Below, in pieces: positions 6,762-63,643 of a stretch of 64,000 bases of DNA (its first letter is position 1; each line of letters opens with the position of its first letter). Origin of the DNA: an uncultured Gammaproteobacteria bacterium (lineage in GTDB: Bacteria > Patescibacteriota > Patescibacteriia > Patescibacteriales > UBA12465). A program made the position numbers and the translations under genes. Where the stretch lies: contig CAYYDR010000001.1 in NCBI GenBank assembly GCA_964470695.1, positions 401,997-465,996 of the forward strand, written 5' to 3'. The notes below the pieces were generated by a model, which had not been told where the DNA came from, did not search any database, and saw nothing but the letters and a program-made list of their open reading frames with translations.

Positions 6762-6775
6762 AAAAGGCCGGTATA

Positions 6776-7665: not shown

Positions 7666-7685
7666 TTAGGTAAATTATAGTATTT

Positions 7686-7874: not shown

Positions 7875-8202
7875 AAGTCTTAATATATTAGTCCTTTCTA
7901 TTTAAAAGTCAAGGATTTATAAAATATTTATTAGGGTTCGTTTAGAAGAAAAATAGATCTGAATTAATAAGAAATAGGGGCCGGGTTTAAAGATAAATAA
8001 GGCAAGAAATAATGCTGGTTGGCGTACTATATTATGTTGCTTTTCAATATTTATTGTGTTAATATATTTATAATAATTGAAAGATAATTTTGGGGTGGCG
8101 GGCCGATGATTTCCCGTTATTTTTTGTTAAGATGAGTTAACGCTTTTTTAGTGTATAGAAATTGGTTGTTTAGCAAATTAATGTAATTGATTATTCAAGA
8201 AA

Positions 8203-8793: not shown

Positions 8794-8825
8794 CAATTTA
8801 GCGGATACTACGTATATTAAGGTGT

Positions 8826-27457: not shown

Positions 27458-27467
27458 ATGTATAGTG

Positions 27468-27551
27468 TGCCCGAGGTGGGATTCGAACCCACACGGCCGT
27501 TAAGCCGCACGATTTTGAGTCGTGTTCGTCTACCAGTTTCGACACTCGGGC
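27468..27551 (-). tRNA. tRNA-Leu(CAA), type II with a long variable arm
   Basis: The reverse complement GCCCGAG..CACGA-CTCAAAA-TCGTG..CGGCTTAACGGCCGT..GTGGG-TTCGAAT-CCCAC-CTCGGGC-A folds as a cloverleaf. CCA is not encoded. Confidence 0.92.
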
Positions 27552-48941: not shown

Positions 48942-49376
48942 ATGAGGCTATGGAGCTTATCGCCTAAGTATCTTGATAGGCAGGGGCTGCTAGCTGTTTG
49001 GCGCGAAGGCCTGCTTGCTAAAAAAGTTTTGGAGGGGAAGACTAAGGGTTATAAAAATCATCCGCAGCTAGATCGCTTTAAGGCAAGTGAAGATAAAATA
49101 TCCTATATTAAAGCCTATTTACTGGCGATTGTTTATGAGGCAGAGAGCCGCGGTTATAATTTTCAGGCGGCTAAAGTCGGCCTCTTGAAAAAAAAATTAA
49201 AAACCATTAAAGTAAATAGCGGTCAGGTGGCCTATGAATTTTCTCATCTTTTAAAAAAGCTTAAAATAAGAGATGAAAAGTTATATAAACAGTTAAAGAA
49301 AATTAGTAAACCGCTCTTGCACCCTTTATTCAAGATAGTTAAAGGAGAAATAGAAAAATGGGAAAAGATAAAATAA
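48942..49376 (+). CDS. Pyrimidine-dimer DNA glycosylase (T4 endonuclease V/DenV-like)
   Basis: 'MRLWSLSPKYLDRQGLLAVWREGLLA...GYKNHPQLDRF' is typical of the Pyr_excise family. Confidence 0.75.
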   Translation: MRLWSLSPKYLDRQGLLAVWREGLLAKKVLEGKTKGYKNHPQLDRFKASEDKISYIKAYLLAIVYEAESRGYNFQAAKVGLLKKKLKTIKVNSGQVAYEFSHLLKKLKIRDEKLYKQLKKISKPLLHPLFKIVKGEIEKWEKIK

Positions 49377-49381
49377 TATAT

Positions 49382-49452
49382 TCGGGGATCGTCTAACGGT
49401 AGGACAGCAGGTTCTGGTCCTGCTTATTGGGGTTCGAATCCCTATCCCCGAG
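49382..49452 (+). tRNA. tRNA-Gln(CUG)
   Basis: Cloverleaf TCGGGGA-TC-GTCT..GGAC-A-GCAGG-TTCTGGT-CCTGC-TTAT-TGGGG-TTCGAAT-CCCTA-TCCCCGA-G. It has the U1-A72 pair typical of tRNA-Gln. Confidence 0.9.
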
Positions 49453-49454
49453 CA

Positions 49455-49495
49455 CTAAAATAAAACAACAGCTGTTAGCTGTTGTTTTATTTTAG
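49455..49495. terminator. 18-bp perfect A/T-rich hairpin (bidirectional terminator-like) after tRNA-Gln
   Basis: CTAAAATAAAACAACAGC-tgtta-GCTGTTGTTTTATTTTAG. Confidence 0.65.
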
Positions 49496-49499
49496 CATT

Positions 49500-49670
49500 C
49501 TAGGAGTTGGGGATTCGAACAGGTCAGGAGCGAAACAAGCTTGAGCCGCTATTTTGAGCGGCGAAAGCGCAGTTGAGTGTCGCTAAAGCTCTGGGGGAGC
49601 TTTAGCGCTGACCCAGGACAAGTGAGCGACGCGGAAGCGGAGCGAGCGCGATAATCCCTATCCCCGAGCA
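49500..49670. ncRNA. Unit 1 of an unclassified GC-rich structured element flanked by tRNA-Gln T-arm/3'-end fragments
   Basis: 5' box TAGGAGTTGGGGATTCGAACAGG (49501-49523). Hairpins at 49545-49562 and 49581-49607. The 3' box AATCCCTATCCCCGAGCA (49653-49670) is identical to tRNA positions 49437-49454. Strand is unknown. Confidence 0.5.
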
Positions 49671-49709
49671 AAATAAAAATACTAGCATAAAATGCTAGTA
49701 TTTTTATTT
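49671..49709. terminator. 18-bp perfect A/T-rich hairpin between unit 1 and unit 2
   Basis: AAATAAAAATACTAGCAT-aaa-ATGCTAGTATTTTTATTT. Confidence 0.6.
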
Positions 49710-49713
49710 CATC

Positions 49714-49878
49714 TTAGGAGTTTGGGATTCGAACAGGTTGGAAGCGAGCTAGTCGGCGTTCAGCGGAACGACGACGCAGCGAGCGATCGTTAAGCATCCG
49801 GGGGATGCTTAACGCAACCCGCGACAACGAAGGCGCGAACTGGTGAGCGCCTGAGGCGGAAATTCCTATCCTCGAGCC
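49714..49878. ncRNA. Unit 2 of the same element (a diverged copy)
   Basis: 5' box TTAGGAGTTTGGGATTCGAACAGG (49714-49737). Hairpins at 49753-49774, 49788-49814 and 49831-49852. The 3' box AATTCCTATCCTCGAGCC matches the tRNA end at 15 of 18 positions. Confidence 0.45.
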
Positions 49879-50342
49879 AACGTAGATTAAGCGAGGTTAA
49901 AGCATCACTTTTTCTATAATCATCGTCAAGTTTTGGCGGTTCTAACCCGGCTAATTCGGCGTTAAATTTTCCAACATTATTTCTTATTGGTAAAATTCAG
50001 TTATAATAAGAAATGTTAAGCTTTTTATCAATTATCATTCGGTTCGAACCTAAAAAATATATAGATTCTTTATCCGCAATAGCAAAACGACCTTTGGTAA
50101 AGTTTGGTCAAAGATTTAGTCAAAGGTTTTAGCGGTATTTTGGCTAATATTAATTATTAAGATTTTGTTAAAATATAAACAATAATACTTTCCCGATATT
50201 TAATCGGTTGATATTATATTTAGTATTATTTTTAACTATAATTTTTATTTAAAATTAAATAAAATTATATTATTTTATTACAAAAGTAATTTAAATAAGC
50301 TTATATTTATTATATTTTTATTGTTATCGGTATTTTAATTAT

Positions 50343-50371
50343 TTGACAGCGGTTCCGCTATTTGATAAAAT
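50343..50371 (+). promoter_or_regulatory. Promoter of the mini-HTH operon: TTGACA, 17-nt spacer, TAAAAT
   Basis: TTGACA at 50343-50348 and TAAAAT at 50366-50371, 32 nt before the ATG at 50403. The spacer contains GCGGTTCCGC. Confidence 0.55.
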
Positions 50372-50402
50372 ATCACCATAAATTATTAATTGGATAAAAA
50401 AT

Positions 50403-50630
50403 ATGGCGAAACAATTAATCGAAAACGAAGAAATATTAAAAAGGCTTAATATTCTCATTGCATTAAATCTCCAGTCATTTTCTAAAAAAAAGGAAGAATT
50501 AGACACAAGGGGACAGATCGCTTTTCTTTCTGGCTTAAAATTGAAAACCAATGAGATTGCCGAAATCCTTGGAAAAACAAGCAACTATATTAATAAAGAA
50601 TTATTTTATATACGAAAAGATAATAGATAA
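50403..50630 (+). CDS. Mini HTH protein, paralog 1
   Basis: N-terminal Leu-rich helix (ILKRLNILIALNL) and a C-terminal HTH (TNEIAEILGKTSNYINKEL). Confidence 0.55.
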   Translation: MAKQLIENEEILKRLNILIALNLQSFSKKKEELDTRGQIAFLSGLKLKTNEIAEILGKTSNYINKELFYIRKDNR

Positions 50631-50635
50631 ATTAT

Positions 50636-50839
50636 ATGGAGAAACAAGATATCTTATTTTCGAAGCTTGATTTAATAACGTATTTACTAATGCTAAATTT
50701 AAAAAATACTGGTACTATGGATGATAAAATTTTAAAAAATTTAGTAAGCATGTTAGTAAAAAGCGGCTATCCATGGCGAGATATTAGTAGTTTTTTAAAT
50801 GTTAGCCCAAACACAATTAGCAAGTTAACTAAAAAATAA
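50636..50839 (+). CDS. Mini HTH protein, paralog 2
   Basis: LFSKLDLITYLLMLNL, then WRDISSFLNVSPNTISKL. 5-nt gap to paralog 1. Confidence 0.55.
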   Translation: MEKQDILFSKLDLITYLLMLNLKNTGTMDDKILKNLVSMLVKSGYPWRDISSFLNVSPNTISKLTKK

Positions 50840-50844
50840 ATCAT

Positions 50845-51057
50845 ATGGAAAAAGAAAATTTAGATGGTATTTCAAAAAAGTTGTCGGTTTTAGTTTCACT
50901 CTTGATAAGCAGTAACGATAACTATAAGACTACTAAGGAGAGAATTGAATATTTGAAAAAATTTAGCTTATCAAATGTTGAAATTGCTGAAATACTAAAT
51001 ACTTCAAAAAATACTGTAGAAGTAAATTTAACTAATTTAAAAAAGAAAAATAAATAA
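50845..51057 (+). CDS. Mini HTH protein, paralog 3
   Basis: ISKKLSVLVSLLIS, then NVEIAEILNTSKNTVEVNL. 5-nt gap to paralog 2. Confidence 0.55.
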   Translation: MEKENLDGISKKLSVLVSLLISSNDNYKTTKERIEYLKKFSLSNVEIAEILNTSKNTVEVNLTNLKKKNK

Positions 51058-51058
51058 T

Positions 51059-51232
51059 ATGCCTAGAACAAAAAAAGAAGAACAAATAGATAACCAAGAG
51101 GCGATCAAAAGACTGTTAGTTTTAATGTTAATTAATGCTGGCGTCGGCTTGCAAGCCATAGCCGATGCATTAGGAGTGGGAATCGCTACCATAAGCAGAA
51201 TGGTTCCACAAAAAAATCTTAATAAAAAATAA
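51059..51232 (+). CDS. Mini HTH protein, paralog 4 (57 aa, below the ORF-track cutoff)
   Basis: My translation is MPRTKKEEQIDNQEAIKRLLVLMLINAGVGLQAIADALGVGIATISRMVPQKNLNKK. It has the same helix-plus-HTH layout, and its ATG lies 1 nt after the paralog 3 stop. Confidence 0.5.
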   Translation: MPRTKKEEQIDNQEAIKRLLVLMLINAGVGLQAIADALGVGIATISRMVPQKNLNKK

Positions 51233-51242
51233 TTAAAATAAG

Positions 51243-51929
51243 ATGACCGGATTAAATCCAGAACTTTTAGATTATTTATCTAAGAAGCTCAGGCTATCCA
51301 AAAATTCTGTTAGGCAATATGTTTCCAGGAAGCGTATACAGTATAAAGAAAGCACTTTAAATGCAGCGGCTCATCTTTTTGCTGTTGAGAAGGGTGAAAG
51401 CGCAAGAAGATTTTTGGACAAAGAAGACAAGAAATCATTGCCTAGTTATGAGACCGAAGCGCCCACCAGAATTAAAATAAAGCAATTAAAAAATCATAAA
51501 AAAGGAATAATTAATTTTTTTAAATATGAAACCCCTGATCCATTTATTAAAGGCCATATAGACGAGGTTAATAAGGCATATACTCATGGCTGTTATACAT
51601 GTGTATTTATTTTTTGCAGAAAAATAATAGAAAATTTAATAATAAATATTTTGAAAAATGAATTAAAAGACAGAACGCTTTATTGGGATTCGTCAAAATC
51701 CCGACATTTAGATTTTAGTTTAGTCCTCAAGAACTTATATGATAACAGATCAAAATTTAATCCAACAAAATTGAAGGCTATTGAACGGCTATATCAATTA
51801 GCGCAGCCATTCAAAAATGATTGTAATAATAAAACGCATTCCTTATTTCACTTAGTCGAAAAGAAAAAGGAAATTGATGATATTAATGTTAGTCAAATTA
51901 TCAACCTAATAAAAGTTTTAGAAAAATAG
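51243..51929 (+). CDS. Hypothetical protein with a DUF4145-like (HEPN-clan-like) C-terminal domain
   Basis: 'HGCYTCVFIFCRKIIENLIINIL' and 'LKAIERLYQLAQPFKNDCNNKTHS' resemble the DUF4145 pattern. It is the last gene of the HTH operon. Confidence 0.4.
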   Translation: MTGLNPELLDYLSKKLRLSKNSVRQYVSRKRIQYKESTLNAAAHLFAVEKGESARRFLDKEDKKSLPSYETEAPTRIKIKQLKNHKKGIINFFKYETPDPFIKGHIDEVNKAYTHGCYTCVFIFCRKIIENLIINILKNELKDRTLYWDSSKSRHLDFSLVLKNLYDNRSKFNPTKLKAIERLYQLAQPFKNDCNNKTHSLFHLVEKKKEIDDINVSQIINLIKVLEK

Positions 51930-52017
51930 AAATTTTTTTGACTTTTAGCCCTAAAAATCGTAAAATTAGGCCAGAGAATAAGACTTTATCTTTTCTTCAT
52001 ATTCAATTTGCTATAAT

Positions 52018-52878
52018 ATGACTACCTCAAAAAAGGCCGTAAAAACTAAGAAAAAAAGCAAAAAAATGTTAGATCCATTTTTTAAGAATAAGGACTTTAA
52101 ATTATATCAAGCCAATAGCTTGGAATTTTTAGCCACTCTGCTAGAGAACTCGGTTGATATGATATTTGCCGATCCGCCCTATATGCTCTCTAACGGCGGT
52201 TTCTCAGTCCATGCCGGCCGTATGGTTAGTGTTAATAAGGGCGAATGGGATGTTAGTAATGGTTTAAAGAAAGACTTTGAGTTTCAATTAGCCTGGATTA
52301 AGGCTTGTCATAGAGTTTTAAAGCCGGGAGGTACGATTTGGATTTCCGGTACCTATCACTCTATTTATCAATGTGGCTTTGCTCTTCAAGTAAGCAAATT
52401 TCACATCCTAAACGATATTGCTTGGTTTAAGCCAAATGCTTCGCCAAATCTAAGCTGTCGCTTTTTTACGGCCAGTCATGAAACCTTAATCTGGGCAAGA
52501 AAAGAATTAGTTCATCCTAAAACTGGCAAGCCGATAACTACCAAACATAAATTTAATTACGACTTAATGAAGAATGGCAATTGGCCGGAAGACTTTTTAA
52601 AAAAGCCTAACCTACAAATGCGAAGCGTCTGGTCTATGGGAACGCCGAAACCATCTGAAAAGAAATTTGGTAAACATCCAACCCAAAAACCAATAGATCT
52701 ATTAGTTCGTATCGTTATGGCTAGCACGGAAAAAGGAGATGTAGTTATTGACCCCTTTACCGGCTCCTCAACGACTGGTTTAGCTTGTGCTCTTAACGGA
52801 CGCAAGTTTATTGGTATTGATTTAGAGAAGAAATATCTAGACTTATCGGTTAAGAGATATAAGGATTTAATAAAATAA
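52018..52878 (+). CDS. Beta-class DNA amino-methyltransferase (N6-adenine or N4-cytosine)
   Basis: 'IFADPPYML' (motif IV) precedes 'VIDPFTGSSTTG' (motif I). TGCTATAAT abuts the ATG at 52018, so Met17 (52066, MLDPFFKNK) may be the true start. Confidence 0.85.
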   Translation: MTTSKKAVKTKKKSKKMLDPFFKNKDFKLYQANSLEFLATLLENSVDMIFADPPYMLSNGGFSVHAGRMVSVNKGEWDVSNGLKKDFEFQLAWIKACHRVLKPGGTIWISGTYHSIYQCGFALQVSKFHILNDIAWFKPNASPNLSCRFFTASHETLIWARKELVHPKTGKPITTKHKFNYDLMKNGNWPEDFLKKPNLQMRSVWSMGTPKPSEKKFGKHPTQKPIDLLVRIVMASTEKGDVVIDPFTGSSTTGLACALNGRKFIGIDLEKKYLDLSVKRYKDLIK

Positions 52879-52890
52879 TCTATTAAATTT

Positions 52891-53418
52891 ATGATAAAAG
52901 GCGGCTTTGGCGGAGCTAATACAAAAACCGGTCTTCACTTTGAAGAAGAATCGGATTTTTTGACTTTAATTGGCAAACAAAAAGGCTATAAGGTGGAAGA
53001 AAATGTTATTTTTTATAATAGTAAAAAAGTTGCCTTAACTTTTAAGAAACACGACCTTTATAGATATTTAGAAAAGAATGGAATTGATTATAAAAAATTT
53101 ATTTCTAAAAAGATTTTGCCAGACGATGCAATTTTTGTAATTTTTAACAACACCTTTTTTATAATTGAGATAAAATTTCAGCATATTGCCGGATCGACAG
53201 ATGAGAAATTACAAACCTGCGACTTTAAAATAAAGCAATATCGTAAATTATTATCCCAATTAAATGTCGAAGTCCAGTATATTTATGTTTTAAATAGATG
53301 GTTTGAAAAACCTGAATATAAAGACGTTTTAGATTACATCATTTCTATTAATGGTTGTTCTTATTATTTTGAGTATTTACCATTACAAAAATTAGGGTTA
53401 CCGGTGCCTAAAAAATAA
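52891..53418 (+). CDS. Putative Type II restriction endonuclease (PD-(D/E)xK fold)
   Basis: 'LPDDAIFVIFNNTFFIIEIKFQ' fits PD..(D/E)xK. It lies 12 nt downstream of the methyltransferase gene. Confidence 0.55.
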   Translation: MIKGGFGGANTKTGLHFEEESDFLTLIGKQKGYKVEENVIFYNSKKVALTFKKHDLYRYLEKNGIDYKKFISKKILPDDAIFVIFNNTFFIIEIKFQHIAGSTDEKLQTCDFKIKQYRKLLSQLNVEVQYIYVLNRWFEKPEYKDVLDYIISINGCSYYFEYLPLQKLGLPVPKK

Positions 53419-53423
53419 AATAT

Positions 53424-54512
53424 ATGCAGAAAATTCAAGCTTTAAGGTATAACCAAAAAGATAAAGAAATATATATTTTTTCCGCAGATCCAAACTTTAT
53501 AAAAAAATTAGTAAAAATTTCTGATATTTCAAAGAATGACAAAAATTTTCAGAGGCCATATGACATTAAGAGGATAGAAGAAATAAAAACATATTTGTTG
53601 GGCAAGGATAAATTGTATAAAAAGGGCAAAAATATATACGCCAAGGGCTATATACCAAATTCAATAGTTATTAATTTATCTAATAAATATAAAATCACTG
53701 AAGAGAACAAAAATATTTATATTAATTTCCCTAGCGCAGAAGAGGCAAAAAAGTTTGAGAATTCCATTGAAATTATAGACGGCCAACACAGGTTACTAGC
53801 CTTTGACGATGAATGTAAATCAAAGTTGAAGAATTATAAGATGTGCTTCGTTGCCTTTACTGGTTTAACGGGCGATGAGAAAAAGGAGGTTTTTATGGTT
53901 TTAAACGAAAGGCAAAAAACAGTTGATAAAAATATACTATTAAGGCAGAAAAAACTTTTGAATTTACTCTTGGACGATGAAGAAATTAGGTATGATATCA
54001 TTGTAAAACTAAACAACGATAATGATTCGCCACTTAAATCAAGAATAGTATTGGCCGGCGAAAAAATTAAATACGGCCTAAAGGCTAAACAGATAGACGA
54101 AATATTTGAAAAATCTAAAATAATCAGTACTTTAACTGATTCTAATGGACAACTTTCTGATAAAAAATATAAATTATTGTTAAATTATTTTAATGCATGG
54201 AAAAATGAATATTCAAATATTTGGTTCAGCGGGAACAATACATTGACAAAAATTTCTGGTTTTAGGTTTATTGTTTTTTTATTTTCCGGGATATATACAA
54301 TTCTAAACTCCAAAAGAAATTTTCAAATATCAGAATTTGAAAAAATAGTTAATGAGATAAAAAAAATTTATTTTAATGATAATTTTGATATAAAAAAAGC
54401 TGATAAATTTCAGTATTTTCAAGAGAAGAGCGGGACTATTAGACTGGCCGAAAATATTAGTAAGGAGATGTGTGAAAAATATGAAGATAAGGATGAGGAT
54501 ATTTTGGTTTAA
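53424..54512 (+). CDS. DGQHR-domain protein (DndB-like, ParB-fold superfamily)
   Basis: The literal motif 'IEIIDGQHRLLAF'. 362 aa, with a 5-nt gap to the nuclease gene. Confidence 0.7.
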   Translation: MQKIQALRYNQKDKEIYIFSADPNFIKKLVKISDISKNDKNFQRPYDIKRIEEIKTYLLGKDKLYKKGKNIYAKGYIPNSIVINLSNKYKITEENKNIYINFPSAEEAKKFENSIEIIDGQHRLLAFDDECKSKLKNYKMCFVAFTGLTGDEKKEVFMVLNERQKTVDKNILLRQKKLLNLLLDDEEIRYDIIVKLNNDNDSPLKSRIVLAGEKIKYGLKAKQIDEIFEKSKIISTLTDSNGQLSDKKYKLLLNYFNAWKNEYSNIWFSGNNTLTKISGFRFIVFLFSGIYTILNSKRNFQISEFEKIVNEIKKIYFNDNFDIKKADKFQYFQEKSGTIRLAENISKEMCEKYEDKDEDILV

Positions 54513-54518
54513 ATTAAT

Positions 54519-55289
54519 ATGAATAATGAAATTGCATCAAAGTTGGACGCTAATATTGTTAAATTTCAGGTAAAAATTAGAAAGAATCTTCAACTTTATC
54601 TTTTTTCTAAAGATGCCATTGTAAATTTTACAAAGAGCAGTAAAGAACAATTTAAAGATTATGAATTTAAAGATTTTTTAGGGAAATTTAAAAAATTAAA
54701 TTTTAAAAAAGATTCTGAAATTAAGAAAATAAGCTATTCTAAAATATCGGTATACGGAGAAAATTTAGTAAAGAATGAGTTGTCAGATCTAATATTTATA
54801 TTAAATATATCTGATTTTGAGGCATGGTTATCAGAATTTTTTAATCTATTATTTATTTATAACCACGATTTACTCTTGAAATTTATAGATCCAAGTAAAA
54901 ATCCAGTAGAATTATCTATTATTATTAGATCCGACAACCTGGAAGATGTCTGGAAAAAAATTATTAATCGCCATCTTTCAAATAAATTCTATAAAGGGAT
55001 GTCTAATATACTGAAAGACTTACTAAAAACTCTTAATGTAAAACTTGATAAAGATTTAGAAACGATTGTTGGGCAAATAAATGAACACAGTCTCTCTAGA
55101 AATTTAATTATACATAATAAAAGTAAAGTAAATTCGGAATATATACAAAAATCAGGACAATATAGCAGATTTGATAAAGCGGGTGCAAATATTGAGATAT
55201 CTGAAGACTATTTATTTCAACAGGTTGATAATGTTTTATTTTTTATGCAAGAGATTAGAAAGAAATTATCGAAAATTAAATCTTTATGA
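54519..55289 (+). CDS. Helical protein with an Rx4H HEPN-type motif
   Basis: 'INEHSLSRNLIIHNKSKV' has R-N-x3-H, as in many HEPN RNases. The call rests on a single motif only. 6-nt gap to the DGQHR gene. Confidence 0.4.
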   Translation: MNNEIASKLDANIVKFQVKIRKNLQLYLFSKDAIVNFTKSSKEQFKDYEFKDFLGKFKKLNFKKDSEIKKISYSKISVYGENLVKNELSDLIFILNISDFEAWLSEFFNLLFIYNHDLLLKFIDPSKNPVELSIIIRSDNLEDVWKKIINRHLSNKFYKGMSNILKDLLKTLNVKLDKDLETIVGQINEHSLSRNLIIHNKSKVNSEYIQKSGQYSRFDKAGANIEISEDYLFQQVDNVLFFMQEIRKKLSKIKSL

Positions 55290-55345
55290 ATTGGCTTATT
55301 TATTCATTTAATTGTCTAATGAATAATTTAGCACTTCCTCCACGA

Positions 55346-55358
55346 CCCCGAGCAAAAT
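55346..55358 (+). repeat. Right-hand copy of the tRNA-Gln 3'-end repeat (candidate attR)
   Basis: CCCCGAGCAAAAT is identical to 49662-49674 and close to the tRNA end plus flank at 49446-49461. Confidence 0.5.
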
Positions 55359-55396
55359 TTACAAAATAGCACTAAATGTGCTATTTTTGGTATATA
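55358..55396 (+). promoter_or_regulatory. Palindromic promoter/operator module, copy 1
   Basis: TTTACA, 18-nt spacer, TGcTATTTT. Contains AAAATAGCAC-taaat-GTGCTATTTT (55363-55387). A 29-nt block is identical to copy 3. Confidence 0.6.
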
Positions 55397-55407
55397 ACAA
55401 TATAAAT

Positions 55408-56040
55408 ATGACTGTCTGGGACAAAATCTACCAAGATTATAAAAATGGCGGAGAAGAATATGCAACTTTAAAGAAGGGTTTAATCCCAGAGTTTTTGGAA
55501 TTTATTAATAATAATAATTTTACAATCAAAAAAGCTTTAGACGTTGGTTGTGGAAACGGTAAATATTTAGTATTTCTTAAAACTCTAGGATTTGAAGTCG
55601 GCGGTATTGACTCTAGTCCGACTGCCGTTGAGATGACCAAAGAAGCCCTAGGAAATAGTTTCGGTATTATCTGTGCTAATATGTATGATTATGATATACC
55701 CCATTCCCATTATGATTTAGTTATTTCTATTGCCGCCATCCACCATGGCTTAAAAAGCGAGGTTAATAAGGCTATAAAACATATTTACGATGCTCTTTTG
55801 CCGGGTGGACATTTTTTTATTACTTTACCAGATAACGAGGGAAGCTCGCATTGGACTATGATGGCCAGCCATGAAGAGATAGCTCCTGGGACTAGGGTCC
55901 CGCTGTCAGGGCCAGAGAAAGGTTTACCTCATAGCGCATTTACAAAAGATGAAATAGAAGAAATGTTTTCCGATTTCAAGAATATTAATTTACAATTATT
56001 AGCAGATAGGGGGCGGTGGATAGTTATTGGAGAAAAATAG
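55408..56040 (+). CDS. Class I SAM-dependent methyltransferase
   Basis: 'ALDVGCGNGKY' is motif I. I prefer the ATG at 55408 because the upstream GTG extension only reads through the conserved module. Confidence 0.7.
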   Translation: MTVWDKIYQDYKNGGEEYATLKKGLIPEFLEFINNNNFTIKKALDVGCGNGKYLVFLKTLGFEVGGIDSSPTAVEMTKEALGNSFGIICANMYDYDIPHSHYDLVISIAAIHHGLKSEVNKAIKHIYDALLPGGHFFITLPDNEGSSHWTMMASHEEIAPGTRVPLSGPEKGLPHSAFTKDEIEEMFSDFKNINLQLLADRGRWIVIGEK

Positions 56041-56094
56041 TTATTATAATCGCGGTTTGTTTTCATATAAAATTTTTAAGACCTAACCGTTTAT

Positions 56095-56697
56095 ATGATA
56101 GAAAAAATTGTTATTGCCACGCATAATCCTGCAAAAAAAGAGCGCTATGGACGCTTATTATCTTCTTTAGCAGAAACTGTTTTAAATTTAGATGATTTGG
56201 GGATTATTGATAAACCAATAGAATCTGGGTCAACTGCCGAAGAAAATGCGGAAATTAAGGCTAGGTTTTACGCCCAAAAATCAGGATTACCGGTCTTTTC
56301 CGAAGATGAGGCATTGTATGTGGATTTTCTCCCGTTAGATAGACAACCAGGAGTTCATGTGCGCAGAATTGATGGGAAAGATGAGGTTGATGACGAGGCA
56401 TTAATTAATTATTGGGAAGGAACAATAAAAGATGCGCCGTCTGATAAGCGATCCGGAAAATGGCATTTCGCGTATTGTTTATATTTCCCAGGCGGGGAAA
56501 TCAAAATTTTTACTATAGATCGTCCGATATTATTTTTTTCTCCGTCATCAGAAAAAAGAATACCAGGCTGGCCAATGAGTAGCCTGCAGGGGCCATTAAA
56601 ATTTAACAAACCTCATACGGAATTAACTAATGAGGAAAAAAATATAAATAATCAAACTGTTAACGATTTAATATCTAAAGAATTAAAGAATCTGTAA
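56095..56697 (+). CDS. Divergent Ham1/RdgB-like non-canonical NTP pyrophosphatase (tentative)
   Basis: 'KIVIATHNPAKKERY' resembles the ITPase N-terminal motif. The rest is weakly similar. Confidence 0.35.
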   Translation: MIEKIVIATHNPAKKERYGRLLSSLAETVLNLDDLGIIDKPIESGSTAEENAEIKARFYAQKSGLPVFSEDEALYVDFLPLDRQPGVHVRRIDGKDEVDDEALINYWEGTIKDAPSDKRSGKWHFAYCLYFPGGEIKIFTIDRPILFFSPSSEKRIPGWPMSSLQGPLKFNKPHTELTNEEKNINNQTVNDLISKELKNL

Positions 56698-56707
56698 GTT
56701 AATTGGT

Positions 56708-57271
56708 ATGTTAGGTATGGTAAATTTTAAGAATAACGATAAAATTTTATTTATTCCAGGATGGCTAGACACCGGCGGGAGAAATGGTTATCAGAATAGC
56801 CTGGATGTTTGGGATAAAAATATTGATATTAATAAAGATTTTAAGGTTGATTACGTCATAGCCCATAGCGTTGGATCCTTGGTGGCTTTGTATAACTGGA
56901 AATTATATAAAAATTTTAAAATTATTTTAGTAAATCCAGTAATTTTAAGAAGAGGTATATTTAGAAGATGGTATAAATTTAGCATTTCAGAGGGGCTACC
57001 AGATTCCTTCAAAAAATCAATAAAGATACTTCACATTATTACGTCTTTGATTAAAATTGTTAGGTTATTTAAAGTTCCAGTCCTTGATATTATTAATACT
57101 GTTCCTAAAGAAAATCTTGCTATTATTTATGGCGAGAATGATATATATCTTTTTGACAGAGAGGCTATACAGAAATTTAGAGAAAAAGGCTTTAGGATTG
57201 AAGAAGTAAAAGGATCCGGCCATAATTATGAAGAAAATATAGAGAAAGCTCTTTTGAATATCATTCCATAA
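56708..57271 (+). CDS. Small alpha/beta serine hydrolase (YdeN/RBBP9-like)
   Basis: 'ILFIPGW', a nucleophile elbow 'AHSVGS', a C-terminal 'GSGHN', and a size of ~190 aa. Confidence 0.55.
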   Translation: MLGMVNFKNNDKILFIPGWLDTGGRNGYQNSLDVWDKNIDINKDFKVDYVIAHSVGSLVALYNWKLYKNFKIILVNPVILRRGIFRRWYKFSISEGLPDSFKKSIKILHIITSLIKIVRLFKVPVLDIINTVPKENLAIIYGENDIYLFDREAIQKFREKGFRIEEVKGSGHNYEENIEKALLNIIP

Positions 57272-57318
57272 AATACTTAGCTCAAAATTATTCCAATTGC
57301 GTCTTATCTAACAATAAA

Positions 57319-57360
57319 TAGACAAAATACCACTTTTTGTGCTATTTTTGTTGTATATAA
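57319..57360 (+). promoter_or_regulatory. Palindromic promoter/operator module, copy 2
   Basis: TAGACA, 18-nt spacer, TGcTATTTT. Contains AAAATACCAC-ttttt-GTGCTATTTT (57324-57348). It is out of frame with the downstream ORF. Confidence 0.6.
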
Positions 57361-57375
57361 AGAATAAGTATTTAT

Positions 57376-58392
57376 ATGAAAACTACTATAATACCTTTCA
57401 CGTATACTAGAGAATTCTCTTTAATATTGTGTGAAGCTTGGGGCGGAGCATATAATAATTTTTTGGGCGTTCAACTAAAAACCCATCCCCGTTATATTTC
57501 ATTTATTAATAGGGGCATGGTATCTACGTACCGTAATCATGAGCTTGATAAAGAAGTTAATCTTCTGTTTTTGAGCCATATTAAGGAAAACCCGTCTTAT
57601 TTCAAAGATTTTTTTGATGAATATATTGATAGGTTTAATGGATTAAAAAATTTTTGGGAAAAGGAATATTTAAGCAGAGAAGAACTCATCTATTTTATTA
57701 ATCAGTTGATCTTATTCTGGCCAGCAATATATTCCAGTACCTATATACCTAACGATAATAATTTTTCCGAATTTGATTGCCAATTAAATTTAAAATTACG
57801 CGAAAAAATTGATATTGCCGCGCATGAGGCTAGTAATATAATAGTTAAGACTCTCCAAGCGATTTATCCTAATTTAGGGGAGCTGGTATATTCTATTAGC
57901 ATTGATGATTTCAAAAATGATCAAGTTGATGCAGAGAAAGTAGAAAAAATGTACAATAGTACTTTGATTTTGGTAGAAGACACTTTGGTTAGCAAGACTG
58001 ATCTTGAAGATTTAAAGAAAAAATATAACTTTGAATTAGAAAATGTGGACGCTTTATCAAGTCAGATGCACATAAAAGGACAAATTGCACATGTTGGCAA
58101 TGTGCGTGGAGTAGCTCGATTGATTTTTAAAAGAAATGAAATGGATAAGATTAAAAAGGGGGAGATATTAGTTACTGGTATGACGACTCCCGAGTTCCTG
58201 CCGGCCATGAGAAAATCGGCCGCTTTTATTACGGACGAAGGCGGTATTACTTGCCATGCGGCCATAATAGCCAGAGAGCTTAAAAAACCTTGCATTATTG
58301 GCACCAAGAATGCCACAAAAGTTATAAAAGACGGTGACTTAGTAGAAGTAGATGCAAATAATGGGATAGTTAAAATTCTAAAAAGAGTATAA
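57376..58392 (+). CDS. Protein with a C-terminal PEP-utilising-enzyme mobile (swivelling phosphohistidine) domain
   Basis: 'ILVTGMTTPEFLPAMRKSAAFITDEGGITCHAAIIARELKKPCIIG'. The N-terminal ~230 aa are unrecognised. Confidence 0.6.
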   Translation: MKTTIIPFTYTREFSLILCEAWGGAYNNFLGVQLKTHPRYISFINRGMVSTYRNHELDKEVNLLFLSHIKENPSYFKDFFDEYIDRFNGLKNFWEKEYLSREELIYFINQLILFWPAIYSSTYIPNDNNFSEFDCQLNLKLREKIDIAAHEASNIIVKTLQAIYPNLGELVYSISIDDFKNDQVDAEKVEKMYNSTLILVEDTLVSKTDLEDLKKKYNFELENVDALSSQMHIKGQIAHVGNVRGVARLIFKRNEMDKIKKGEILVTGMTTPEFLPAMRKSAAFITDEGGITCHAAIIARELKKPCIIGTKNATKVIKDGDLVEVDANNGIVKILKRV

Positions 58393-58564
58393 AGTTTTAT
58401 ATAATTAAAATATAAATTTATGAATAAAGTTACACGTTTTAAATTCCCCTGGGACAAAAAGAATAAGTAGACAGAGAAATTATAATGTGTTAGAGTAATT
58501 TATTATTTAAACAGTTATTTAAAAATTAAAGCAACTATTTCTAAACAAAAAGAGGTGAATCTCT

Positions 58565-59353
58565 ATGTGGTATTTAATGTATAAGCTTTTTAGACCAATC
58601 CAGCCTATTTCGGGCGGCCTAGCGGCTTGGATAGTTTCCAGGGCTTGCGGGGCAGATTTCCACTCATCTTTAGCCGCCGCAATGACTATGGCATTCGGTA
58701 TTATAGGGGCTAGTTTTTATCACTACGGCGGAGCTAATTGGATGTACGCTCGGAAATCCGAGCGGCTAAAGTTTAAAGACCCTCAGGTAATTATGCTCAT
58801 CGGTCTCGTTATATTTAGTCTTTCTATTGCTATCGCGGTTCAGTGGTTACCGAAACAGTGCGTCTATATCGCTCTGTTTAACACTATTTCCGTGGCAGCC
58901 TATTCGGCCAAGCTTTCGTCGCATTGGATGACCAAAAATCTGACCATGAGTTTAGTCTGCGCTACGCCGGTGGCCATGGGTTGGCAAGCGGGGAATTTTA
59001 CTCATCCGATAGTGCCATGGGCCATTGCTATAGCTATATTAGCCCATCTTTCTAGGGAGATGATTAAGGATGTCAAGGATATTATAGCCAACAATGGCCG
59101 TAGAGTAACCTTGCCTATGGTACTAGGAACCGGCACAGTCCTTCAAATTGCTGGCAGCCTATTATTTATCGTCGGAGTCATCATGATTTTTCTGTTATGG
59201 TTTACCGGGAGTGTATTCCAACAGGCCATGGTGGTTATGTCCATATCCCTATTTTTTCTAACGGCCTGGCAGCTTACTATTCATAAGCAGGCGATGCGGA
59301 GTGAAACAGTAATTACTATGGGGATGTTCTGCATTTTACTGGCTTTAGTTTAG
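58565..59353 (+). CDS. UbiA-superfamily-like polytopic membrane protein (atypical)
   Basis: About 8 TM helices. 'REMIKDVKDIIANNGRRVTLPMVLG' resembles the second Asp-rich motif region of UbiA prenyltransferases. I do not see the first Asp-rich motif. Confidence 0.4.
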   Translation: MWYLMYKLFRPIQPISGGLAAWIVSRACGADFHSSLAAAMTMAFGIIGASFYHYGGANWMYARKSERLKFKDPQVIMLIGLVIFSLSIAIAVQWLPKQCVYIALFNTISVAAYSAKLSSHWMTKNLTMSLVCATPVAMGWQAGNFTHPIVPWAIAIAILAHLSREMIKDVKDIIANNGRRVTLPMVLGTGTVLQIAGSLLFIVGVIMIFLLWFTGSVFQQAMVVMSISLFFLTAWQLTIHKQAMRSETVITMGMFCILLALV

Positions 59354-59374
59354 ATTTATTTTAGCTTGGATTCT

Positions 59375-59406
59375 ATGGCTGTCTATTTAAGGCAGCCATT
59401 TTTTTA
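59375..59406 (+). terminator. Intrinsic terminator
   Basis: Stem ATGGCTGTC/GGCAGCCAT followed by T8. Confidence 0.75.
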
Positions 59407-59487
59407 TTCATAATTAATTAAATTTAAATAGAGGGACTGTTTAATATGGTTAAATATGATATAATTTTCATATAATATATAAAAAAT

Positions 59488-60183
59488 ATGAAAAAAACGC
59501 CCGAACAAGCTTTAATGGAAATATTTAACGAATATAAAGACAGAGGACTTATTTCTTTGTATTTATATGGTTCAATTTTAACGCAAGACTATAATGAGGG
59601 AGAGAGCGATATAGATTCAATTGGATTTGCGTCTGAGGATATGCCGTTGTCTCTTGAAAATGAAATAAAAAATAAATTATGTGAAAAATCGGATTTTGAT
59701 AAATTTGGTTTTAGGCTTTTGTATAAATCCGAATTAGATTCCGGGATTATTAAAGGTAATTTAGCTAGTTTTATTCATCCTCAGTTATTGCTTCTGGATT
59801 TCCCTTACTGGAAACATGTAGCGGGGCAAGTTTTTTCCAGATCAGATTTTTCATTAGTTGATGTTGATGCGGCTGGGGCTGTAAAAATTAGATTAAATCA
59901 TTTGGTAAGAATTGAGGATGGCTCATTTAAGACTGCGCCGGGCGATAAGCATATTTTATTTTTGAAAGTATTAGCTCGGATTATGTTCCATTTACAAAAA
60001 GAGCGGGGTTATAGTGAGCCTTTTTCATATAGTTCGGTATTTCTCCATTCCAACGAAGAAGAAAAACTAGTTGCCGAGGCCATACTTAACTGTAAAAAAA
60101 ATAAATGGAGTGAATTGGCGTTTAAAGAGAATGAAGCTATATATAAAAATTTTATTAATGTTTTAAGAAGTCGTTTTATTTGA
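59488..60183 (+). CDS. Nucleotidyltransferase (AadA/ANT-like minimal NTase fold)
   Basis: 'LYLYGSILTQDYNEGESDIDSIGF' is a GS..DxD motif. Confidence 0.5.
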   Translation: MKKTPEQALMEIFNEYKDRGLISLYLYGSILTQDYNEGESDIDSIGFASEDMPLSLENEIKNKLCEKSDFDKFGFRLLYKSELDSGIIKGNLASFIHPQLLLLDFPYWKHVAGQVFSRSDFSLVDVDAAGAVKIRLNHLVRIEDGSFKTAPGDKHILFLKVLARIMFHLQKERGYSEPFSYSSVFLHSNEEEKLVAEAILNCKKNKWSELAFKENEAIYKNFINVLRSRFI

Positions 60184-60269
60184 GTGACATGGCGGTCTAT
60201 GGTTTTTCTATAAGAAATAGAAATATTTAGGATAAATTCGTCCCAACTATATCTAAACCTTGGAGTAAA

Positions 60270-60310
60270 TAGACAAAATAGCACTAAATGTGCTATTTTT
60301 GTTGTATAAA
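60270..60310 (+). promoter_or_regulatory. Palindromic promoter/operator module, copy 3
   Basis: TAGACA, 18-nt spacer, TGcTATTTT. Contains AAAATAGCAC-taaat-GTGCTATTTT (60275-60299). The ATG at 60314 follows closely. Confidence 0.6.
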
Positions 60311-60313
60311 TAT

Positions 60314-61426: not shown

Positions 61427-61478
61427 TTAGCTTCGGTTGTTTAGATCTTAACATAATTAATATATAAAAAATAAAATT

Positions 61479-61652
61479 ATGAAAAAATATTATAGAATAA
61501 TATTATATTCTATTTTTGCAATATTATTCGGCATATTTATGTTTATATATGGCGGATATGACGATAGCCCTGGCGCGCAGCTTTTGGGGTTAATATTATT
61601 TATTATTGGTGTTGTTAGCTTAATAAAAAATAAAAGAAACAATTGTCTTTAG
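61479..61652 (+). CDS. Small two-TM membrane protein (57 aa, below the ORF-track cutoff)
   Basis: My translation is MKKYYRIILYSIFAILFGIFMFIYGGYDDSPGAQLLGLILFIIGVVSLIKNKRNNCL. Confidence 0.35.
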   Translation: MKKYYRIILYSIFAILFGIFMFIYGGYDDSPGAQLLGLILFIIGVVSLIKNKRNNCL

Positions 61653-61789
61653 TTTAGGCCGCATCTAAAGTTAATTAAAAGGATTTGACCGCGCCTTGAG
61701 TTTATACTTAGAAGCGGTCTTTTTTATTATTTTTAATAATAAGTCCGCGCGAGGTATTTTATATTTTCTTAATATTAAGAAACTTTATA

Positions 61790-61830
61790 TTGGCAAAATA
61801 GTTAAAAATATGCTATTTTTGTTATATTAC
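61790..61830 (+). promoter_or_regulatory. Palindromic promoter/operator module, copy 4 (degenerate)
   Basis: TTGGCA, 18-nt spacer, TGcTATTTT. The outer half-sites AAAATAG..CTATTTT are retained. 23 of 29 positions match copies 1 and 3. Confidence 0.5.
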
Positions 61831-61854
61831 CTCATAATTAAATTGTTTAATCAG

Positions 61855-63393
61855 GTGAAGAAAAAAATACAAATATTATTATTGCTAATCCGTTTGTCTT
61901 TTTTGGGTTTGTTTTTGTATTCGGGTGTTAGATTCTATATTTTTTTATCAAATAACCATGGTCCTCTAAATTTAGCTATCTCCTTTTTTCTGCTTTTAGC
62001 TGAAGCGCATTCAATCCTTCATTCATTAGGATTTATAATTAGTGTCGTTCGTCTGAGAGTGCCGGGGGTAAATTATCATCGTCACGCTGAGTTAGATATA
62101 AATAATTTGCCATCGGTAACAATTTTAGTCCCGGCTAGGAATGAGCCGGTTGATATTCTAGAGTTAACTTTTATTTCTTTAGTTTCTTTGGATTATAAAA
62201 ATAAGGAAATATTCTTTCTAGATGGTTCAGATGAAAAATACTTTAAGCAAAACCAGGCTTTAGCTGAAAAATATAATATTGGTTATTTTCACCCTACAGA
62301 GAGACCCCGGAGTAAGGCGGAAATAATTAATCGGTATTTACCTAATCTTACTAGTAAATATTTGGCGGTCTTTGACGCTGATCAAAACCCTTTGCCAGAA
62401 TTTTTATTAGAAACTGTTGGGCTATTGGAATATTCTAAAAGAATAGGCTTTGTTCAGACGCCTCAATTATATTCTAATCTTCATGTTAGCCCAATCGCGC
62501 GCGGCGCAGCTTTGCAACAGTCAATTTTTTATGAAAATGTTTGTGAATCAAAGGGTAAATCTGGGGCCATGTTTTGCTGTGGCACCAATTTTTTAATGCA
62601 AACTGAAGTTTTGAGGCAAGTAGGTGGGTTTGACGAGAGTTCGGTTACGGAAGATTTTGCCACTTCCGTTAAAATACACTCCCTGGGTTATCGTTCAATC
62701 TATTATAACCATGTTAGAGTTTTTGGCATGGCTCCGGAAACTCTGCCAGCCTATCTTAAACAGCAATTTCGTTGGTCGGCTGGATCAGTTGGGGTTCTGC
62801 GGCGCTTGTTTTTAGATTCTTTGAGCGGAAAATTGCATTTAAATTTTGCGCAAAAATGGGAGTATTTTTTATCCGCTACTTATTATTTTGTTGGCTGGTC
62901 ATTTTTTATCTTAATGCTGTGCCCAATTCTTTATTTATTGTTTGGCGTCCCTTCTTATTTTGCTAGCCCTTATTTATATCTAGGGACTTTTGTCCCTTAT
63001 TATACGCTAATGTTAGTAACCTTCTACGCGACTATGACTAAAAGACACTATAAGATAAGGGATATTTTTATGGGCATTATTATGGGATCCTTGAGTTATC
63101 CTGTTTTAATAAAATCTACCACGGCAGCCATCTTCGGCCGAAAAGTTAGTTTTGAAATAACCGACAAGGGAAGAACTGGCAGATTAAGTTTTTGGAGATT
63201 ATGGCCTTGGACTATTATGATAACTATAAATATATTGGCGATTGTAAATGGACTTTTTCATATTTCGGAAGATTATTATGCTATCGGGATAAATATTTTT
63301 TGGTGCGCTTATCATGCTATTTTGCTTTCTTATATATTTAAACTTAACGAAAGCCCCAAGATAGAAAAAGACAATATTTTAAATTACGCTTAA
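61855..63393 (+). CDS. Processive family-2 beta-glycan synthase (cellulose-synthase-like)
   Basis: 'VFDADQNP', 'VTEDFATS' and 'LKQQFRWSAGS' (QxxRW), flanked by TM helices. The start is uncertain: GTG 61855 or TTG 61843 if the module is a promoter, versus the ORF-track TTG 61696 or ATG 61810. Confidence 0.75.
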   Translation: MKKKIQILLLLIRLSFLGLFLYSGVRFYIFLSNNHGPLNLAISFFLLLAEAHSILHSLGFIISVVRLRVPGVNYHRHAELDINNLPSVTILVPARNEPVDILELTFISLVSLDYKNKEIFFLDGSDEKYFKQNQALAEKYNIGYFHPTERPRSKAEIINRYLPNLTSKYLAVFDADQNPLPEFLLETVGLLEYSKRIGFVQTPQLYSNLHVSPIARGAALQQSIFYENVCESKGKSGAMFCCGTNFLMQTEVLRQVGGFDESSVTEDFATSVKIHSLGYRSIYYNHVRVFGMAPETLPAYLKQQFRWSAGSVGVLRRLFLDSLSGKLHLNFAQKWEYFLSATYYFVGWSFFILMLCPILYLLFGVPSYFASPYLYLGTFVPYYTLMLVTFYATMTKRHYKIRDIFMGIIMGSLSYPVLIKSTTAAIFGRKVSFEITDKGRTGRLSFWRLWPWTIMITINILAIVNGLFHISEDYYAIGINIFWCAYHAILLSYIFKLNESPKIEKDNILNYA

Positions 63394-63394
63394 T

Positions 63395-63643
63395 ATGAAA
63401 AAGAAAAATCAAAAAATAATCTCAGATTTTATTTTGCAAAGCATTAATGAGGCTAGAATTAAAGAAGAATTAGCAATTCCTCTCTATTCCGGTCATATTA
63501 AGCAGACTTTGTTCTGGTCTGGATTGCCAAAGGTTAGTCGCGATAAAATTATGTCTGGTTTAACAACTTTAAAGACGGATTCAATAAAACATTGTAAAAT
63601 ATTGAAAAGGGTGGCTGATAATTATATAAAAAATAACAAATAA
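63395..63643 (+). CDS. Small hypothetical protein, translationally coupled to the glycan synthase gene
   Basis: The ATG lies 1 nt after the upstream stop. A helical 'DSIKHCKILKRV' segment is an ExxH/DxxxH-like, ferritin-like hint only. Confidence 0.35.
   Translation: MKKKNQKIISDFILQSINEARIKEELAIPLYSGHIKQTLFWSGLPKVSRDKIMSGLTTLKTDSIKHCKILKRVADNYIKNNK

Follow-up and report, generated by a model that had tools for sequence, protein, structure and literature searches.

A probable decayed serine-recombinase element within a cassette array downstream of tRNA-Gln in a Candidatus Falkowbacteria genome

We analyzed a 64-kb stretch of contig CAYYDR010000001.1 (64,000 nt, hereafter the window), in which an AT-rich island lies downstream of a tRNA-Gln gene. 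Relatives of the LysS protein encoded in the window placed the genome in Candidatus Falkowbacteria (Patescibacteria). The genes before tRNA-Gln, including GreA, LysS and a pyrimidine-dimer glycosylase, are core genes, as had been stated in the initial annotation of this DNA. The tRNA gene is followed by a hairpin, two G+C-rich structured units, the island with its cargo genes, two further cassettes and a conserved glycosyltransferase block (Table 1). tRNAs were called with ARAGORN and Rfam, protein domains with Pfam and defence genes with PADLOC, and profiles of attachment (att) sites were searched with nhmmer. The compared loci, taken from a genome collection and from metagenome contigs, are labelled by L-numbers (L001 etc.), and coordinates for metagenome loci refer to re-oriented copies. 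Our results indicate that the segment 49878-55353 is very probably the decayed remainder of an integrative element that a large serine recombinase (LSR) had inserted into the copy of the tRNA-Gln 3' end that terminates structured unit 2.

A 13-mer at the right edge of the island, CCCCGAGCAAAAT, had been proposed to repeat the tRNA end more closely than chance would allow. The exact 13-mer was found in the window only at 49662 and 55346, and with at most one mismatch there were 3 matches against 0.13 expected, a number that none of 100 shuffles reached. The claimed near-identity to the tRNA end and its flank reflects a real match, but the stretch in common with the tRNA end is just 8-9 nt, CCCCGAGC(A). 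We counted the 8-mer CCCCGAGC in 50 related loci. Downstream of tRNA-Gln it occurred 15 times in the forward and once in the reverse orientation in 238 kb, compared to 2 forward and 4 reverse copies in 561 kb upstream. This bias in strand and position across loci shows that the repeat is a family-wide pattern and not a product of chance. The step to AT-rich DNA that had been noted at the tRNA was also observed, the G+C content being 0.286 for 49878-55353 compared to 0.394 for 1-49381; the lowest of 176 upstream windows, each as long as 49878-55353, was 0.366. However, the units (49500-49877) are G+C-rich at 0.537, and G+C remains low beyond 55353 (0.346 over 55354-61690), so that composition alone does not set the right edge.

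The downstream copies of the 8-mer fell into two classes: type A copies are structured units that carry a copy of the tRNA-Gln end, and type B copies lie at AT-rich gene ends. The type B site is a conserved 26-nt sequence, TTCSAACTWTRTCCMMGWCYCCGAGC, always on the plus strand and present 1-5 times per locus. The right edge of the island is a type B site. Its sequence CCACGACCCCGAGC, together with the upstream TTGTCTAAT, is common to L008 and L043, where the neighboring genes are unrelated. The right-edge repeat is a real att scar, as had been supposed. Clustering of the open reading frames (ORFs) of the arrays brought out one protein that was found in 11 loci, almost without exception on the minus strand; its N-terminal motif is YxRxSxxxQ. 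The proteins of L239, L223 and L284 all matched the Pfam families Resolvase and Recombinase, and those of L239 and L223 also matched Zn_ribbon_recom, which identifies the clustered protein as an LSR. Read on the minus strand, the type B site codes for the C-terminal tail of this LSR (LGVWDIVGT or LGVVDEVRTS), and such tails are found in frame in intact LSRs (...PIW-LGVWDTIGT... in L284; ...SSML-GVVDEVRTS... in L294 and L252). The LSR genes of L239 and L278 overlap with tRNA-Gln, whose complement codes for the tail GDRDSNPN, and that of L213 borders on a type A unit. In two Falkowbacteria genomes, L003 and L012, tRNA-Gln is likewise followed directly by a full-length LSR gene.

The island had been described as lacking an integrase. 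No intact recombinase ORF was found in the 64-kb window, but a 231-nt fragment of an LSR gene lies on the minus strand at 49874-50104, at the left end of the island. BLASTP aligned it with residues 475-533 of the L223 LSR (35/59 identical, 59%, E 1e-19), and tblastn with residues 453-533 (51% over 81 aa, E 6.7e-15). The L223 enzyme, encoded by an ORF at 91-1731 on the minus strand, is the closest relative of the window pseudogene; it lies at tRNA-Asn(GTT) (55-129), whose complement codes for its tail LRGWDSNPRPID, and the LSR family therefore retargets between tRNAs. The window fragment points towards unit 2 and ends ...LNLRW/L at the crossover (slash). Its match stops exactly where the tRNA-like end of unit 2 (...TATCCTCGAGC, ending at 49877) starts, and because the fragment abuts this end, the junction 49877/49878 is attL. 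The 190 nt at 49882-50071 have 83% nucleotide identity to L048:11621-11810, directly after the tRNA-Gln of L048. A reading of the minus strand here as non-coding, from neutral-looking substitutions relative to L048, was overturned by the protein matches, which identify a decaying LSR pseudogene. The sequence GGTTCGAACC at 50041-50050, formerly taken for a relic of a T-loop, is present but represents codons GSNR of this pseudogene on the minus strand. At the other end of the island, the minus strand of 55308-55353 is the detached coding sequence of the LSR C-terminal tail LGVVEEVLNYSLDN (nhmmer E 3.7e-12; E 0.0063 with the large profile). When the left arm of attR was joined to the right arm of attL, a single open frame resulted, ...DALTSLNLRW-LGVVEEVLNYSLDN, closed by a stop codon. 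The two ends therefore come from a single gene, which formerly extended across attP.

The arms of the att sites fit this model and stand in the classical four-way relationship. The right arm ATTGAAGAAAAATCGC... is common to attP (L294, L252) and attL (L239, L213), and the right arm AAATAGACAAAATAGCAC... is common to attB (L018, L010, L037) and the window attR; attB and attL have a tRNA-type left arm, attP and attR a B-type one. The hybrid attL and attR arms of the window element thus recombine to attP and attB with a short core, as expected of an LSR element. The core in common is 6-9 bp, from CCGAGC(A) to CCCCGAGCA. Many B2 scars keep CTCC where the tRNA has CCCC, and B2-type scars keep CTCCGAGC; since that T is retained, the exchange took place 3' of it, and the exact crossover dinucleotide would lie within CCGAGC(A). 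Reported core lengths are 5-8 bp for serine integrases and 25-76 bp for tyrosine integrases at tRNA genes (PMC8092301). The repeat spans only 8-9 nt rather than a tRNA segment of 20-70 nt because the enzyme is a serine recombinase.

The first bases to the right of the attR crossover, from 55354, are AAAATTTACAAAATAGC. The module that they open (55354..55397) has 83% identity to L018:11576-11633 and 81% to L010:11570-11620, two stretches that begin in the last 8-14 nt of tRNA-Gln and continue into the native flank. This suggests that the module is the right half of attB as it stood before integration. The initial annotation was correct in proposing a site-specific insertion at a copy of the tRNA-Gln 3' end, for which the att arms and the rejoined LSR frame are evidence up to 55353, but both of its borders have to be moved. 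The element proper is 49878-55353; its left border is the 3' end of unit 2 and not the tRNA, since tRNA, hairpin and units are host sequence. Position 55358 does not mark the end of the variable DNA, which continues as an array of three cassettes to ~60266, the island being only the newest of them.

Table 1. Features of the tRNA-Gln locus and of the cassette array in the window.
Feature	Position	Strand	Evidence or remark
Wzy-like ligase, GreA, LysS, pyrimidine-dimer glycosylase			genes before tRNA-Gln
tRNA-Gln(CTG)	49382..49453	+	ARAGORN; Rfam tRNA 55.3 bits
tRNA-Gln 3' end ...AATCCCTATCCCCGAGC			primary attB left half-site, unoccupied in the window genome; att comparison
Hairpin and T-run after tRNA, ACTAAAATAAAACAACAGC...TTTTAGCATT	49454..49499	+	one native flank type
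Structured unit 1	49500..49670	+	G+C-rich multi-hairpin core; fold z = -3.0
Structured unit 2	49714..49877	+	tRNA-like 3' end AATTCCTATCCTCGAGC, left half of island attL
LSR pseudogene fragment	49874..50104	-	231 nt; residues 453-533 of L223 enzyme; one in-frame stop
Element start (attL right side)	49878		CAACGTAGATTAAGCG
Best promoter-like site of the region	50343..50371	+	TTGACA-17-TAAAAT with TG; 11/12 consensus matches
Four small ORFs (75, 67, 70, 57 aa)	50403..51232	+	helix-turn-helix (HTH) matches below threshold in 3/4
228-aa protein, unassigned family	51243..51929	+	no Pfam match below E 0.01
Type II N6/N4 DNA methyltransferase	52018..52878	+	PF01555 1.6e-54; PADLOC MTase_II 1.2e-89
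175-aa protein, possible PD-(D/E)xK nuclease	52891..53418	+	PF20472 E 0.0076, below cut-off
DndB/DpdB-like (DGQHR) protein	53424..54512	+	PF14072 1e-13; PADLOC DpdB 1.5e-22
256-aa protein, unassigned family	54519..55289	+	single RNLIIH (Rx4H) motif
attR left arm (type B site)	55308..55353	-	26-nt core site 55328-55353
Common core CCCCGAGCA	55346..55354		in tRNA, unit 1 and attR; crossover within CCGAGC(A)
Native-flank module AAAATTTACAAAATAGCACTAAATGTGCTATTTTTGGTATATAA	55354..55397	+	bidirectional terminator-like hairpin and promoter-like element
Older cassette 2: S-adenosylmethionine (SAM) methyltransferase, Ham1/ITPase-like protein, 187-aa protein	55408..57271	+	
Weak decayed B-like site	57291-57315	+	nhmmer E 6.6
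Native-flank module, copy 2	57316-57359	+	
Older cassette 3: PEP-utiliser-domain protein, UbiA prenyltransferase, nucleotidyltransferase	57376..60183	+	
Decayed B2-type site ttcgtcccaactatatctaaaccttggagt / gtcccaactatatctaaaccttggagt	60237-60266	+	nhmmer E 1.4
Native-flank module, copy 3	60267-60300	+	hairpin identical to 55363-55387
Downstream anchor: GT2 glycosyltransferase and 82-aa ORF	61696..63643	+	Pfam; ancestral

To explain these observations, we propose the following course of events, whose order is the most plausible one. The free circular element would have carried attP inside the 3' end of its LSR gene. Exchange with attB (...TCCCCGAGC followed by an A-rich flank) within CCGAGC(A) would have split this gene, with its body placed on the minus strand immediately following the tRNA-like end (attL) and its last ~14 codons moved to the far end of the element (attR, 55308-55353). 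A later deletion would have removed nearly all of the LSR gene and any replication genes, leaving the 231-nt stub, the promoter region and the plus-strand cargo operon. Repeats of the same process over time would have produced the cassette array downstream of tRNA-Gln. The order of the remaining parts, namely LSR stub on the minus strand, divergent AT-rich promoter region and plus-strand cargo operon, is that of intact elements. The initial annotation had offered three possibilities, an immobilised and decayed island, mobilisation in trans and an unrecognised mechanism; the first fits best, and the island is presumably immobile at present.

Several observations weigh against this explanation. 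The attL core of the window is mutated (CCTCGAGCC instead of CCCCGAGCA). The LSR domains in the window amount to an 81-residue C-terminal fragment without the catalytic domain, and the assignment to the LSR family, which we regard as probable, rests on this pseudogene match and on the att architecture. The empty tRNA-Gln site looked for in relatives was found in L018, L010, L037 and others, where tRNA-Gln is directly followed by the module that stands after 55353 in the window, but these are different species; no empty-site variant of the same strain was found, the Logan contigs L001, L325 and L326 being identical to the window. Look-ups with the exact proteins likewise returned only short Logan contigs identical to the window. 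Scans of viral contigs with the unit, B1 and B2 patterns revealed no free circular form or viral contig with the site, and a scan with the 15-mer TCCACGACCCCGAGC gave only chance matches in G+C-rich phage contigs. Finally, some chromosomal arrays contain attP-like junctions, in which a B arm directly adjoins the 3' end of an LSR gene (L284 3695-5458, L294 1569-3122, L252 5670-6383 and L043 16923-17075). These require an extra assumption, possibly that a newer element entered the attL of an older one; the P' arm ATTGAAGAAAAATCGC is similar to the native B' arm AAATAGACAAAATAGC.

We weighed four other explanations. In the first, the island is a non-autonomous cassette that is still mobile, having kept both att junctions and, inside the LSR stub, the right half-site of attP; an LSR of a co-resident element or from another part of the genome would excise and re-integrate it in trans. 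Between the window and L048 the 190 nt of LSR stub have 83% identity despite wholly different cargo, which would fit selection on a cis-acting site; many arrays, such as L002 and L277, have one-gene cassettes without a recombinase, and the same cargo genes recur in unrelated arrays with 60-87% identity. However, the ~66% amino acid identity of the stub is, by our estimate, the level expected from neutral drift at 83% nucleotide identity, the attL core differs from attR at two positions, the 64-kb window contains no LSR gene, and the junction of an excised circle was not seen in the available contigs. We consider continued mobility in trans unlikely.

Much less probable is an integron-like platform, in which a resident recombinase would capture promoter-less cassettes at tRNA-Gln and an attC-like end would consist of the B site and a hairpin. 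The arrays do contain up to five co-oriented cassettes of ~0.5-7 kb, judged from the spacing of B sites, and every cassette closes with a conserved site followed by a variable hairpin. Nevertheless, the B site is explained as the sequence coding for the LSR tail and not as an attC hairpin, the hairpins lie in the flank of the host or of an older element and not in the cassette, and the recombinase travels with the element and its Rep gene rather than being a fixed neighbor of the array. No IntI-type tyrosine recombinase or attI was found, the former in a phmmer screen for tyrosine recombinases.

A classical tRNA island, formed by a tyrosine integrase since lost or acting in trans, would account for the textbook signature seen here, namely a tRNA 3' end as the site, a direct repeat of that end and low G+C content, and the repeats had first been interpreted as the classical footprint of integration into a tRNA gene. 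It is very improbable here, because the remnant at the junction is that of a serine recombinase and the common core is just 8-9 nt instead of a tRNA segment of ~20-70 bp. A phmmer screen with single sequences (lambda, P4 and SSV1 integrases), which is of limited sensitivity, gave no match at E <= 10 in any of the sequences screened (the window, 80 genome loci and 120 metagenome loci), and no integrase family was among the most frequent Pfam families of 150 downstream ORFs. That no site-specific event occurred, the 13-mer being due to chance or terminator context and the low G+C content to ordinary gene flux by homologous recombination, would suit a tRNA-derived part of only 8-9 nt (by our own calculation the 8-mer is expected ~0.07 times in 14.5 kb at the family background rate) and a G+C content that is low past the proposed edge, but is hardly credible when identity with scars of other genomes reaches 14 nt plus TTGTCTAAT, the right flank matches the native tRNA flank of relatives, an LSR stub lies at the opposite end and the 8-mer has a 15:1 bias in strand and position across the family.

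The structured units had been suspected to be linked to the mobilisation of the island. We found at least 25 full-length relatives of units 1 and 2, all on the plus strand, which is the tRNA strand. They are ~160-190 nt long, G+C-rich and multi-hairpin, and each terminates in an exact copy of the tRNA-Gln 3' end of its own genome, so that the unit 3' end varies with the host tRNA-Gln (CCCTAT, CCCTGT or CCTAGT). Loci bearing units include L008, L037, L213, L219, L222, L225, L243 and L246, as well as L257, L284, L285, L308, L310, L315, L320 and L321. Of the 19 pairs that RNAalifold predicted from a MAFFT alignment, 13 had compensatory double changes, and Rfam searches of the whole window at gathering thresholds and of 49300-50450 at E <= 10 gave only spurious miRNA-type hairpin matches to the units. 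We regard the units as a candidate for a new structured RNA family.

Intact elements contain no units, which in L239 and L278 are located outside attR, on the side of the host; the units are therefore part of the target locus and not of the mobile element. The arrangement of tRNA, hairpin and unit is a pre-integration state in relatives, and the flank seen at 49454..49499 also lies to the right of the attR of the intact L239 element. The terminus of unit 1 is an exact 18-nt copy of the tRNA-Gln 3' end, and this unit is a host-side, unoccupied secondary attB. LSR elements have taken units as attB in the window, L213 and L008. These findings suggest that the units are host-side mimics of the tRNA end that act as extra attB sites, which replaces the proposed role in mobilisation. 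Single-strand origins of a rolling-circle replicon were rejected as an interpretation, because the intact elements lack a G+C-rich segment of this kind and the units are host-side with respect to attR. Also considered, but found unsupported, were miniature inverted-repeat elements, bridge- or guide-type RNAs and tmRNA-like genes.

We compared about 50 Falkowbacteria genomes. Synteny was perfect over the 10 kb upstream of tRNA-Gln and was lost directly after it, and almost all ORFs in the 10 kb downstream were genome-specific. The contigs of 16 of the 50 stop no more than 200 nt past the tRNA-Gln 3' end, and several stop at the final base of the tRNA (L009, L011, L014, L025-L027, L029, L034-L036, L041, L044, L046, L049, L052 and L066; the contig end is at ~11.5-12 kb in most of these loci), which is the effect that a repeated or polymorphic junction has on assembly; short-read assemblies are systematically broken by the hotspot. 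A scan for the B-site pattern matched at least 120 metagenome contigs, many of which begin or stop at B sites; tRNA-Gln (CTG or TTG) was present in 20 of the 23 with a visible upstream plus-strand tRNA. L051 and L002 are nearly an empty and occupied pair, with the same hairpin and mini-unit after the tRNA in L051 and after a B2 scar in L002.

Complete elements bounded by attL and attR were found in L239 (8.4 kb) and L278 (7.3 kb), with element genes at 5497-12361 and 1621-7444, respectively. Beside the LSR both encode a rolling-circle Rep protein (PF23343 REP_ORF2-G2P, with a weaker RepSA match) and a conserved, uncharacterised ~315-aa protein, and their variable cargo includes a HEPN/Toprim protein and secreted trypsin-like proteases. 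A Rep gene near the LSR was also present in L294, L220, L223 and L003, the other LSR loci with enough sequence. By their gene content, the intact elements resemble small integrative rolling-circle plasmids or replicons like those of single-stranded DNA phages. A tblastn search of the window with the Rep protein of the elements gave no match; the gene was either lost from the window element or never part of it. The LSRs are less than 35% identical to phage serine integrases in GenBank. The best database matches of the L239 LSR (29-34%) were MT837677.1 (6.4 kb) and MT836653.1 (9.3 kb), both "Bacteriophage sp." from human faeces, small unannotated phage-like contigs that are element-like in size.

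A decayed integrative element is an ordinary kind of element. Bxb1, phiC31 and A118 are serine-integrase (LSR) systems. The relatives' LSRs share with them the Resolvase, Recombinase and Zn ribbon set, the very short core, the unidirectional attP x attB reaction that gives hybrid attL and attR, and the position of the recombinase gene at one end of the integrated element. Known serine-integrase elements mostly enter and disrupt protein-coding genes (PMC8092301). Here, in contrast, insertion takes place at the extreme 3' end of tRNA-Gln (of tRNA-Asn in L223) and leaves the tRNA intact; attP is situated in the integrase's own 3' coding end, the C-terminal tail is swapped and identity to phage LSRs is below 35%. 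A serine integrase aimed at the extreme 3' end of a tRNA, with attP within its own 3' end, would be unusual. Integrative rolling-circle plasmids at tRNA genes are also known among actinomycetes, in the form of the pSAM2-type actinomycete integrative elements (AICEs), which have a tyrosine integrase and a long tRNA-identical core. The intact relatives are likewise small integrative replicons with a rolling-circle Rep (PF23343, weaker RepSA) at a tRNA 3' end, but have an LSR, a 6-9 bp core and a Patescibacteria host, and no transfer genes were seen.

In SSV1, a Sulfolobus fusellovirus, attP lies within the int gene (NC_001338 annotation). In both systems the att site in the integrase gene matches a tRNA, and integration divides the integrase gene between the element ends; however, SSV1 Int is a tyrosine enzyme with an N-terminal site in an archaeal host, whereas only the last ~14-27 codons are swapped here. 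The LSR probably stays functional with its tRNA-encoded tail. In the integration-dependent immunity of mycobacteriophages, attP lies within the repressor gene (PMC8092301). There, too, integration alters a C-terminus through attP in the 3' coding end, the new end in both cases coming from sequence at a tRNA 3' end, but the protein affected is the repressor and the integrase is a tyrosine enzyme. A regulatory role of the LSR tail swap is a hypothesis. Tandem accretion of islands at tRNA and tmRNA genes is known, successive integrations pushing decaying islands outwards and leaving direct att repeats. The arrays similarly have older cassettes pushed outwards at one tRNA 3' end with a series of att repeats, but their scars are 26-nt remnants of the recombinase tail with a 6-9 nt tRNA match, and the units multiply the targets. 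Accretion arrays across a lineage of the candidate phyla radiation, with tRNA-end mimics as extra landing sites, also appear unusual.

An apparent island without an integrase thus becomes a readable history, and short att repeats at a tRNA can mark a serine rather than a tyrosine recombinase. The comparison points to a lineage-wide hotspot in Falkowbacteria and other Patescibacteria, at which elements with a serine integrase and a rolling-circle Rep stack cassettes after tRNA-Gln. In these reduced genomes it is probably one of the main ways in which genes are gained, bringing defence genes, methyltransferases and metabolic genes, and it accounts for the many metagenome assemblies that end precisely at tRNA-Gln. 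Literature searches turned up no account of the hotspot, nor any of serine integrases that use tRNA-Gln in Patescibacteria; their coverage was incomplete, and the result is no proof of novelty. Integrases with a short conserved tRNA-end target and well-defined attP and attB could be of interest to genome engineers. More speculatively, and with considerable doubt, the units might be a new class of host-encoded structured RNA which, with the tRNA, forms a multi-site landing pad or decoy for Patescibacteria-wide serine-integrase rolling-circle elements; the tail swap may switch the activity of the enzyme, and the locus may be an integron-like cassette bank driven by a serine recombinase.

The older cassettes of the window have counterparts in other arrays. 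Homologues of the SAM methyltransferase of cassette 2 (60-83% identity) adjoin B sites in L277, L313, L303 and L223. Those of cassette 3 lie directly before B sites in L265, L043 and L303 and are also present in L285 and L019. Overall, homologues of cassettes 2 and 3 in other arrays have 54-87% identity, and a full-length match to the PEP-utiliser protein in L213 has 40%. The module AAATAGACAAAATAGCACnnnnnGTGCTATTTTTGTTATATAA, a terminator-like hairpin with a promoter-like element, is present in three copies in the window. In relatives it follows tRNA-Gln directly more often than any other sequence does, and it may be the favoured right half of attB. Beyond the array, the block of GT2 and the 82-aa ORF is the only downstream block common to relatives, following the tRNA at 2.8 kb in L002, 5.1 kb in L004 and 12.2 kb in the window.

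The promoter-like site of the island lies upstream of the cargo operon and is divergent from the LSR remnant. Among the cargo genes named in the initial annotation, the methyltransferase and the DGQHR protein were confirmed by strong domain matches (Table 1), and a copy of the former, 85% identical, was found in the array contig L274. The PD-(D/E)xK assignment corresponds to a weak match; this 175-aa protein is likely the restriction partner of the methylase, judging partly from its position. The four supposed mini-HTH genes are small ORFs, three of them with sub-threshold matches, and are possible candidates for regulators or directionality factors. The label DUF4145-like is unsupported, the 228-aa protein having no Pfam match, and for the HEPN label the 256-aa protein offers a single motif. 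The window element contains no complete Dnd or Dpd system. Elsewhere in the window, two ordinary housekeeping RNA genes were detected, a bacterial RNase P RNA of class A (20203-20605, 182 bits) and tRNA-Leu(CAA) (27467-27551).

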